From assembly GCF_036507355.1 (NCBI RefSeq), contig NZ_AP027877.1: a stretch of 64,000 nucleotides of DNA; one strand, 5' to 3'. A program made the position numbers and the translations under genes. This document shows positions 2,244-4,809 of the stretch, in pieces. Origin of the DNA: Escherichia coli (GTDB taxonomy: Bacteria; Pseudomonadota; Gammaproteobacteria; Enterobacterales; Enterobacteriaceae). The notes under the pieces are model-generated. The model made no database searches. It saw only the letters and a program-made list of their open reading frames with translations, and was not told the DNA's origin. Positions within the stretch are counted from its first letter, which is position 1. The number at the start of each line of letters is the position of its first letter.

Positions 2244-3068
2244 ATGGTCGCACCCATTCCCGCAAAACGCGGCAGAAAACCCGCCGTTGCCACCGCACCA
2301 GCGACTGGACAGGTTCAGTCTTTAACGCGTGGGCTGAAATTACTGGAGTGGATTGCCGAATCCAATGGCAGTGTGGCTCTTACGGAACTGGCACAGCAAG
2401 CCGGATTACCTAATTCCACTACTCACCGCCTGCTAACCACGATGCAACAACAGGGCTTTGTCCGTCAGGTTGGTGAACTGGGTCACTGGGCGATCGGCGC
2501 ACATGCTTTTATGGTCGGCAGTAGCTTTCTCCAGAGCCGTAATTTGTTAGCCATTGTCCATCCTATTCTGCGCAATCTGATGGAAGAGTCTGGCGAAACG
2601 GTAAATATGGCAGTGCTGGATCATAGCGATCACGAAGCGATTATTATCGACCAGGTACAGTGTACGCATCTGATGCGTATGTCAGCCCCTATCGGCGGTA
2701 AGTTACCAATGCATGCCTCTGGTGCCGGTAAAGCTTTTTTAGCCCAACTGAGCGAAGAACAGGTGACGAAACTTCTGCATCGCAAAGGCTTACATGCCTA
2801 TACCCACGCGACGCTGGTGTCTCCTGTGCATTTAAAAGAGGACCTCGCCCAGACGCGTAAACGTGGCTATTCATTTGACGATGAAGAACATGCGCTGGGG
2901 CTTCGTTGCCTCGCGGCGTGTATTTTCGATGAACACCGCGAACCATTTGCCGCAATTTCGATTTCCGGGCCGATTTCACGTATTACCGATGATCGCGTAA
3001 CCGAGTTTGGCGCGATGGTGATTAAAGCGGCGAAGGAAGTAACGCTGGCGTATGGCGGAATGCGGTGA
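2244..3068 (+). CDS. iclR: IclR transcriptional repressor of aceBAK (274 aa)
   Basis: ORF 2025..3068 contains MVAPIPAKRGRKPAVATAPATGQVQSLTRGLKLLEWIAE; ATG at 2244 preceded by aaaggag RBS; divergent from metH. Confidence 0.93.
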   Translation: MVAPIPAKRGRKPAVATAPATGQVQSLTRGLKLLEWIAESNGSVALTELAQQAGLPNSTTHRLLTTMQQQGFVRQVGELGHWAIGAHAFMVGSSFLQSRNLLAIVHPILRNLMEESGETVNMAVLDHSDHEAIIIDQVQCTHLMRMSAPIGGKLPMHASGAGKAFLAQLSEEQVTKLLHRKGLHAYTHATLVSPVHLKEDLAQTRKRGYSFDDEEHALGLRCLAACIFDEHREPFAAISISGPISRITDDRVTEFGAMVIKAAKEVTLAYGGMR

Positions 3069-3084
3069 CATTTTCGCCTCTGAT

Positions 3085-4809
3085 TTATACGAATCGCACG
3101 CTAAACCGCTGTCTGCGCCGGTACGCATAAACATCTTCCACATGTCCTTCACGGATGCGTTTTTGTAGCGCGCGCCAATAGTTGGCACGAAAAAGGTCAG
3201 CGTGCATTTCTTCAAACAGTGGCCCAATGCGCGGGTCGGCGCATAGCCAGTGGCGGAATTCTTCCGGGAACACATCGCCTGGCGAGACGCTGTACCACGG
3301 TTCGCTGGCAAGTTCGTCTTCCGGATAGCGCGGCGGCGGGATGTCGCGGAAATTCACTTCCGTCATGTAGCAAATTTCATCGTAATCATAAAACACCACA
3401 CGCCCGTGACGGGTGACACCAAAGTTTTTAAATAACATGTCGCCGGGGAAGATGTTGGCGGCGGCAAGCTGGCGAATAGCGTTACCATACTCTTCAATGG
3501 CGTCGCGTAGCTGCTGACCTTCCACTTGTTCCAGCCAGATATTGAGCGGCACCATCCGTCGTTCGATGTAGAGATGGCGAATCACAATCTGTTCGCCGAG
3601 ATCGGTGATTTTTTCCGGCGCTTCCTGGAGCAGTAATTCCATTAATTCCGGTGCAATTTGCCGTTTCTCCAGCACAAAGTTTTCGAATTCCTGGGTGTCT
3701 GCCATTCGCCCCACGCGATCGTGTTCTTTAACCAATTGATAGCAGGCGCGAACGTGAGCGGCAGACATCTCTTTCTGCGGCGCGAACTTGTCTTTAATCA
3801 CTTTGAACACCCGATCAAAGCCCGGTAGCGTAAACACCAACATCACCATGCCACGAATACCCGGCGCTTCAATGAACTGCTCATTACAGCCCTGGAGATA
3901 AACGAGATATTCGCGGTAGCTTTCGGTTTTGGCGTGCTTCTGGCAGCCGATAGCCATATACAATTCAGCGGTGGTTTTACCTGGCAGAATTTCCCGTAGC
4001 CACTCGACCAGCGCTGCGGGCAGCGGTGCATAAACCATAAAATAAGAACGCGCAAAGCCAAAAACAATGCTCGCTTCGGCGGTGGTCGTCAGGCAGGTAT
4101 CAATAAATAACTCGCCGTCGTCCGTCTGGTGGATCGGCAGCAAAAATGGCAATGTGCCGGAAGGCGTGATCAGTTTGCCCACCAGCCAGGCGGCTTTATT
4201 GCGGTAAAACAGTTCGTTCGCCACCTGTAAATGGCTTTCGGAGAGGTTTTCTGGCCCCAACGTTTCCGTCAGATGGCGAATAATATAATTGATATCACGG
4301 CTTTTATTCTGCCAGGGCAGGCGCAGCGGCAGGTCACTGAGGACTCGCATCAGCAGCGCTTCCCAGCCATGCTCGGGGTAGAAGTCTTTCGCCAGTGGGC
4401 GCGGAATGGTACGAAAGCGGCGCTCTGGCTGGGAGCTAAAGATAAAAAGCCGCTCGGGAGTAAGCGAGCGGTGGTCAAATAACCGACAGTACACGGAGTT
4501 AAAAAAGCTCTCCGCAATCTCGAAGCGCGGGTAATCCGGCAACAGCCGGGTGTAATGCTCTTTGACGCGCAGTAAAAATTCCGCGTCCGTGCTTTGGCCG
4601 TTGGTAATGCAGCGCAGTTGCTCCACGACCAGACCAACGTGATGATCGTAAAGATGGATACGGTTTTTCATCGCCTGCTGGACAGCATGCCAGTCGGCCT
4701 GTTCGAAACGCTGCTGCGCCCCGGAAGTCACTTCGAGGAATCGACCATACTGAGCGTCGAAGCCTTGCAAAATGGTTTGAGCAATCAGTAATTCCAGGCC
4801 ACGCGGCAT
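3085..4809 (-). CDS. aceK: Isocitrate dehydrogenase kinase/phosphatase (574 aa here)
   Basis: ORF translation [35 protein letters not shown]...; last gene of aceBAK. Stop is 16 bp from iclR stop. Confidence 0.93.

Follow-up and report, generated by a model that had tools for sequence, protein, structure and literature searches.

Probable Loss of the Phylogroup Marker arpA by Allelic Replacement from a Non-coli Escherichia Lineage in an Escherichia coli Chromosome

The gene arpA is one of the markers of the Clermont scheme for Escherichia coli, in which strains of phylogroups B2 and F are arpA-negative. In K-12 MG1655 the 2187-nt gene (728 aa) lies between the convergent genes aceK and iclR and shares 32 nt with the 3′ end of aceK. 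Here we describe this locus in a stretch of 64,000 nucleotides of an E. coli chromosome (contig NZ_AP027877.1, assembly GCF_036507355.1), called the window throughout, in which iclR and aceK face each other tail to tail without arpA. An initial annotation of the window had described the K-12 arrangement correctly and had taken the site for a deletion junction on a B2-like chromosome. The present comparison points towards a different origin. With a probability of roughly 0.7, arpA was lost by allelic replacement from an arpA-free non-coli Escherichia, and neither by local deletion nor by B2 or F descent.

The arpA-free junction as such is the known basis of the Clermont marker, and its observation is ordinary. 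The window shares the same locus, the 16-bp spacer and a 574-aa AceK with the phylogroup F strain IAI39 and with the urinary isolate 82.0311, which served as B2-pattern reference and was chosen by its arpA−/yjaA+ markers alone. Unlike the alleles of these groups, however, the arpA-free allele of the window is 91–93% identical to B2/F and 97.8% identical to E1V33, an unclassified Escherichia which the genome collection lists as a separate species representative and whose metH is ~93% identical to that of E. coli. Also in contrast to the Clermont expectation for B2 or F, the backbone flanks of the window group with arpA-positive E. coli. A foreign allele in a backbone of arpA-positive type would make the arpA marker state homoplasious in the window strain.

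Removal of an insert via homologous recombination across conserved flanks is a well-established process. As in other allelic replacements that restore an empty site, the crossovers would lie in conserved flanking genes, with ~4.16 kb giving way to 1.7 kb. Unlike in the usual case, the donor would be a different species-level Escherichia lineage, ~8% diverged, and not a conspecific strain, and the event is read from sequence. The locus would be a new instance of an established process and not a new mechanism. What goes beyond the known is the explicit polarity, with the empty site as the ancestral state, and the inter-lineage origin of the window allele.

A probable recombinant tract around the iclR–aceK junction

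Window positions 3060–3095 read atgcggTGAcattttcgcctctgatTTAtacgaa, and the wider interval 3055–3099 reads ggaatgcggTGAcattttcgcctctgatTTAtacgaatcgc. The iclR coding sequence (2244–3068, plus strand; 274 aa at annotated length) ends with the stop codon TGA at 3066–3068, and the aceK coding sequence (3085–4809, minus strand; 574 aa) ends with the stop codon at 3085–3087. The spacer between the convergent stops comprises the 16 bp of 3069–3084. All of these coordinates agree with those of the initial annotation. K-12 does not have this spacing, as the stops of aceK and iclR lie 2471 bp apart there. The window AceK ends in SVRFV, compared to SVRYGEMLF* in the 578-aa protein of K-12, so that the length difference of the two proteins, which the initial annotation had assigned to the aceK 3′ end, could be verified.

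The junction lies within an apparently recombinant tract of 1,695 bp (2114–3808) with non-coli Escherichia, E1V33-like ancestry, covering the iclR promoter region, iclR, the spacer and the last ~240 aceK codons. Its identity amounts to 97.8% to E1V33 and to 91.2–93.0% to ten E. coli references. In a sliding comparison E1V33 reaches 96–99% over ~2000–3750, where K-12, IAI39 and KKa014 show 89–95%; outside the tract the relation is reversed, with 97–100% for E. coli and 89–95% for E1V33. The boundaries are sharp, to ~25 bp or less on each side. The left breakpoint falls at 2092–2113 in the metH–iclR intergenic region and the right one at ~3800–3831 inside aceK. The same pattern emerges from informative sites, defined as positions at which three E. 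coli references agree with one another and differ from E1V33. Between 498 and 2091 there are 89 consecutive sites of E. coli type, at 2114–3799 the window carries the E1V33 type at 80 of 92 sites, and from 3832 to 4922 the sites are again mostly of E. coli type, with runs of 28 and 23. The aceK gene is chimeric, its codons in 3809–4809 being E. coli-like and the ~240 C-terminal codons (3085–3808) E1V33-like. In a neighbor-joining (NJ) tree of the tract the window pairs with E1V33 and is placed outside every E. coli, whether arpA-positive or arpA-negative.

A direct comparison is offered by an arpA-positive E. coli locus, L090, whose AceK has 578 aa and whose 728-aa ArpA is intact. Between L090 and the window there are 120 mismatches within 2114–3808, but 3 in 1500–2113 and 2 in 3809–5145; the contrast between the tract and these ~1.95 kb of flanks gives a Fisher p of ~1e-34. 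Over longer flanks (left 800–2090, right 3809–9200) the window is 98.9–99.2% identical to L090 and to a second arpA-positive locus, L089, in comparison to 96.3–96.6% for the B2-pattern strain and 97.3–98.6% for IAI39. In NJ trees with Salmonella as root, either flank of the window falls among the arpA-positive E. coli. L089 and a further locus, L091, both arpA-positive and yjaA-positive, are 99.8–100% identical over aceB, metA, yjaB and yjaA, and L089 shows 3 mismatches to the window over about 5600–10200. Among the contigs shown, those encoding the exact AceB of the window have it in arpA-positive contexts only. Counted in 1-kb bins, positions 1–52,000 are ~98–100% identical to ordinary E. 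coli, bar divergent patches. A non-coli species, suspected from the 90–94% identity at the junction, was rejected, as the sequence on either side and elsewhere in the window is ~98–100% E. coli-like. The exact AceK, PurH and PurD proteins of the window correspond to BED24280.1, BED24286.1 and BED24287.1, in records labelled E. coli, and two public loci (L083, GCA_905398585.1; L084, GCA_021425525.1) are 99.99% identical to the window.

The course of events might be pictured as follows. The starting chromosome would have belonged to an E. coli of the arpA-positive part of the species, with an L090-like ancestor, and the donor would have been an arpA-free non-coli Escherichia lineage resembling E1V33. 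Homologous recombination, with crossovers in the metH–iclR spacer (2092–2113) and in aceK (~3800–3831), would then have swapped ~4.16 kb of iclR-arpA-aceK′ for 1,695 bp of arpA-free DNA. Such a swap would restore the ancestral empty site and remove arpA, and would probably be neutral apart from erasing the phylogroup marker. We consider it likely that the marker was erased in this way in a strain of arpA-positive type, by a 1.7-kb tract that stems from a cryptic Escherichia lineage, is centred on the insertion site and reverts the locus to its ancestral empty state.

The empty site and the K-12 arpA segment

The arpA-free junction with a 574-aa AceK and a spacer of 15–16 bp was found in IAI39, MSB1_8B, 82.0311, E1V33 and the E. 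albertii type strain, and EcN_Sk has a spacer of this length too. The spacer measures 15 bp in E. albertii and 16 bp in E1V33, and AceK ends in ...SVRFV* in both. In a multiple alignment the junction is colinear base for base between the window, the F strain, the B2-pattern strain, E1V33 and E. albertii. The ancestral empty site at 3076–3097 (GCCTCTGATTTATACGAATCGC), 22 bp that cover the final two AceK codons and the stop, is identical in F, the arpA−/yjaA+ urinary isolate, E1V33 and E. albertii, as is the AceK tail SVRFV*. Contiguous iclR–aceK without arpA is present in 1,311 of 5,425 complete E. coli genomes (24%), and in the tree of the tract, B2-pattern and F alleles branch basal to a single arpA-positive group.

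Other Enterobacteriaceae carry the pair tail to tail as in the window. This was seen in a scan of species representatives for AceK, in which the matches listed include E1V33 and E. albertii, with E. coli, E. fergusonii, E. marmotae, E. ruysiae and E. whittamii absent from them. Among these matches, each of the 76 Enterobacteriaceae species loci with both genes has aceK and iclR adjacent and convergent. The stop-to-stop distance ranges from −47 to 1675 bp (median 62 bp), and the gene ends overlap in 8 species. From this range the intergenic site would be a hotspot for small insertions. ArpA matches are confined to E. coli loci, and none occurs in the non-E. coli loci listed. The AceK tails of other genera are variable and often run into sequence resembling repetitive extragenic palindromes (REP), whereas Escherichia keeps the short SVRFV*. 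AceK lengths in other Enterobacteriaceae span 566–593 aa, and in several genera the protein ends in a translated REP-like ...PDKA(L/F)APPSGNVRRA* (loci L005–L082).

Because the junction is common to F, the B2-pattern strain, E1V33 and E. albertii, and all 76 listed loci have the two genes convergent, the arpA-free tail-to-tail site represents the ancestral Escherichia state, and arpA is a low-GC insert that part of E. coli acquired horizontally. The term deletion junction, used in the initial annotation, does not fit a 22-bp site that is shared with these lineages and is the ancestral empty site. A literature search that also covered E1V33 and GCA_905398585 returned nothing on the origin of arpA or on the window strain.

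The K-12 counterpart of window 3076–3097 is a 2,489-bp segment (NC_000913.3, 4220308–4222796) that carries arpA and has a GC content of 37.0%, compared to 52.8% for aceK and 54.2% for iclR. In the pairwise alignment with the window its boundaries lie after TGAC(A/T)TTTTC and before ACGCTAAA. The segment supplies the final six AceK codons, YGEMLF, where the window has FV, and puts a hairpin-like GGGCAGA...TCTGCCC 3′ of iclR. No target-site duplications were found at the segment, which points towards a replacement event and not a clean insertion. In Pfam the K-12 protein matches Ank_2 as well as Toxin_15 (E 1.3e-96; 'ShET2 enterotoxin, N-terminal region'), and its RefSeq name is now EspL4, as a member of the ShET2/EspL2-family type III effectors. 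While this gene occupies the site in arpA-positive E. coli, the window is without any copy. A tblastn search with K-12 ArpA (E ≤ 1e-3) gave no homologue in the whole 64 kb, so that the absence first noted between iclR and aceK holds for the entire window. In three of the seven arpA-positive E. coli loci compared, the gene is frameshifted, truncated or internally deleted (L087, 6041–7614; L088; L091), and in BL21(DE3) it is reported to be disrupted and unexpressed (PMC5435950). It appears to be a decaying gene.

The two neighbouring proteins are little affected. The window, K-12, IAI39 and E1V33 all encode the same IclR protein (100% identity). At the DNA level iclR is 91.9% identical to K-12 and 3–8% diverged across K-12, IAI39 and E1V33, with all differences being synonymous. 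An unchanged protein despite such DNA divergence indicates strong purifying selection and regulation that is unaltered at the protein level. AceK of the window aligns end to end with solved AceK structures as far as residue 573, and the crystallised construct 4P69 ends at ~residue 571. Past RQRF(S/C)(V/I)R(F/Y) the genera differ in tail sequence. Since the tail is variable among genera and the construct stops at ~571, the tails FV and YGEMLF are very likely equivalent. The loss of arpA was probably neutral, because IclR is unchanged, AceK differs only in its poorly conserved tail, and many strains have a silent or decayed arpA.

Phylogroup markers and alternative explanations

The Clermont primer sequences were checked against Table 1 of the published protocol (PMC7464145) and searched in the window. 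The AceK.f site is present as an exact match (3464–3483, minus strand), and no ArpA1.r site occurs in the window with up to 3 mismatches allowed. No 400-bp product is expected, and the arpA PCR is negative in silico. The yjaA gene (9790–10173, minus strand; 127 aa), whose presence had been noted at the outset, matches both primers exactly (9904–9923, plus strand; 10095–10114, minus strand) and gives the expected amplicon of 211 bp. According to the literature, arpA−/yjaA+ is read as B2 if chuA is present and as 'clade I/II' if it is absent (PMC7464145). The use of this combination as a sign of B2 in the initial annotation holds for the first case and fails for the second. The observed markers agree with the B2 pattern, disagree with the F pattern (arpA−/yjaA−) and, as far as arpA and yjaA go, also fit that of cryptic clade I/II (arpA−, chuA−, yjaA+, TspE4.C2−). 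yjaA is absent from IAI39 and MSB1_8B. The latter had been considered as B2 reference and was rejected, its yjaA-negative state being the F pattern.

EcN_Sk (L086, NZ_CP172017.1, a 'Nissle' derivative) was likewise dropped as B2 reference, as it has K-12-identical genes without arpA and looks chimeric. Over its positions 1–11000, metH, aceA, aceB, metA and yjaB–yjaA are 100% identical to K-12, yet the junction is arpA-free. The EcN_Sk junction allele is unique among the 5,425 genomes, with the next best match at 97.4%. By these comparisons the strain looks like a K-12/EcN chimera at the aceK–iclR locus.

If the chromosome was a B2 (or F) E. coli, arpA would be absent by descent and the junction would be an old deletion scar. 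The marker pattern agrees with B2 when chuA is present, and B2-pattern and F genomes share the 16-bp junction and the 574-aa AceK. Among the 5,425 complete E. coli genomes, however, the best identity is 92.1% over 2700–3500 and 94.2% over 2200–4900, the latter reached by IAI39, CE10 and similar strains of phylogroup F, and none of the 1,311 arpA-less genomes exceeds these values. Since many B2 genomes are in the set, the lack of a near-identical match argues that the window is not from a B2 strain. Further, the flanks are nearer to arpA-positive strains and cluster there (98.9–99.2%, against 96.3–96.6% to the B2-pattern strain), the presence of yjaA speaks against F, and an empty site that is common to other Escherichia species speaks against an old scar. 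We regard B2 or F descent as very improbable; contrary to the initial annotation, the chromosome is, as judged from these identities, not B2-like. An illegitimate, non-homologous deletion of arpA in the window lineage itself is the least probable of the explanations considered. Although such a loss should be tolerated, given that arpA is often pseudogenised (L087, L088, L091 and B strains), a random event would not rebuild the exact 22-bp ancestral sequence together with the SVRFV* tail, and 120 substitutions on both sides of the site would be left unaccounted for.

The remaining alternatives accept the divergent tract and differ in where it comes from. It could be native to a genome from a deep or cryptic branch of Escherichia in which arpA was never present, with the E. 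coli-like flanks being imported. It is common for genomes of cryptic clades to be deposited under the name E. coli, with some of them typing as F (PMC10100065), which is compatible with this idea, as are the rarity of the backbone (no RefSeq complete E. coli genome above 98.5% in aceA–yjaA), a second highly divergent patch at 17–19 kb, and the occurrence of the exact AceK and PurH proteins on only 6–7 contigs. On the other hand, positions 1–52,000 are ~98–100% ordinary E. coli outside two short patches, so that nearly all of this sequence would need importing, and there is long near-identity to arpA-positive E. coli (3 mismatches to L089 over ~5600–10200; 2 to L090 in 3809–5145). A window that is mostly ~98–100% ordinary E. 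coli argues against a non-coli clade, clade I aside, and we consider a native tract unlikely. To a similar degree it is doubtful that the allele is an old E. coli polymorphism, maintained by incomplete lineage sorting or balancing selection and shared by E1V33 through chance. The region is unusually diverse within E. coli (K-12 and IAI39 are 96.7% identical in aceK and 97.8% in iclR), and E1V33 itself is mosaic, its aceA, aceB and metA being 96.7–98.8% identical to K-12. But the allele occurs in 0 of the 5,425 complete genomes (best match 92.1%), its boundaries are sharp to ~25 bp on each side, and its 7–9% divergence from E. coli corresponds to the between-species level of E1V33 metH.

Several observations weigh against a replacement by E1V33-like DNA in an arpA-positive ancestor and account for the reserve with which it is stated. 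In-silico Clermont typing here consists of arpA and yjaA, as the chuA and TspE4.C2 loci lie outside the 64-kb window. Within the tract, 2378–2474 differs from E1V33 and from E. coli alike. With 97.8% overall identity the donor would be E1V33-like and not E1V33, its true lineage apparently being unsampled. E. fergusonii, E. marmotae, E. ruysiae and E. whittamii are absent from the matches listed, and any of them could be a closer donor. On the recipient side, no RefSeq complete E. coli genome is more than 98.5% identical over aceA–yjaA, which indicates that the backbone lineage itself is rare, and the region reads as a patchwork of E. coli alleles. The arpA-positive state of the immediate ancestor is deduced from the flank phylogeny and from near-identical arpA-positive relatives, not from a sister genome. 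When the last 240 aa of AceK served as query for a closer donor, only fragmentary metagenome proteins were returned, full-length AceKs being collapsed in one 90% cluster.

Transcription termination, further features and implications

According to the initial annotation the two convergent genes have no room for separate terminators. This is true for the window, yet ordinary across the family, since the pair is convergent in all 76 listed species and overlaps in 8. On the plus strand a weak terminator-like hairpin lies at 3064–3078, with 5 pairs, of which 3 are G-C, followed by TCTGATTTAT as a modest T-rich tail. A consensus scan of 2000–5200 returned 6 terminator-like sites, in comparison to 3.8 ± 1.8 in shuffles, and this hairpin is the only one at the junction; it requires bases at which the F and B2-type sequences of E. 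coli deviate. The same scan gave no aceK terminator candidate on the minus strand at the junction, and neither strand of the junction folds better as RNA than its shuffles (z ~0). As far as these predictions go, neither iclR nor aceK appears to have a convincing intrinsic terminator, which is ordinary for the gene pair. In the BL21 transcriptome, premature termination in aceK and an aceB:aceA:aceK product ratio of ~0.3:1:0.003 were reported (PMC5435950). With such a low aceK output, few polymerases should reach the junction from the aceK side. The 3′ ends of aceK are probably rare, and convergent read-through is likely to be tolerated or handled by Rho.

Further features were noted along the window. 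In aceK, 4051–4350 is 91–94% identical to K-12, IAI39, KKa014 and E1V33 and near-identical to L090; it would be a further mosaic piece that is common to some E. coli. The aceA–aceK spacer contains REP-like repeats at 4835–4988, with a median of 14 matching places per E. coli genome, and IAI39 carries IS1397 in this spacer at REP-like repeats. A second divergent patch at 17001–19000 (purH 3′ end, purD, zraR 3′ end) shows 89–93% identity, against ~98–100% around it, and may have been imported from a divergent Escherichia lineage as well. The exact PurH protein was found on only 6 public contigs. At ~20279–21038 an IS1 with a 167-aa InsB-like open reading frame (ORF; 20294–20797, minus strand) interrupts zraS relative to EcN_Sk and KKa014, and explains thousands of plasmid matches. 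KKa014 was set aside as best match for 15.8–34.4 kb, as its rank is due to the shared IS1; it is an ordinary arpA-positive strain. Between thiH and rpoC, in a segment that is missing in EcN_Sk, there is a 179-aa ORF at 33834–34373 (yjaZ/htrC, heat-shock protein C in KKa014).

For the glyoxylate-shunt genes themselves the present knowledge is unchanged, as IclR is identical and AceK differs only in a non-conserved tail. The consequences concern the marker and the exchange of genes between lineages. An arpA-negative result is in itself evidence neither of deletion nor of shared B2/F ancestry. In the window strain the arpA state was probably changed by recombination, which would mislead PCR or in-silico Clermont typing based on arpA and yjaA; if the proposed replacement is true, marker PCR would wrongly assign the strain to 'B2' or 'clade I/II'. 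The locus would then also represent a natural cross-species gene conversion that purged an acquired effector-like gene. The patch at 17–19 kb hints at several such imports in this chromosome, and short inter-lineage tracts of ~8% divergence are relevant to how genes pass between E. coli and the cryptic clades.

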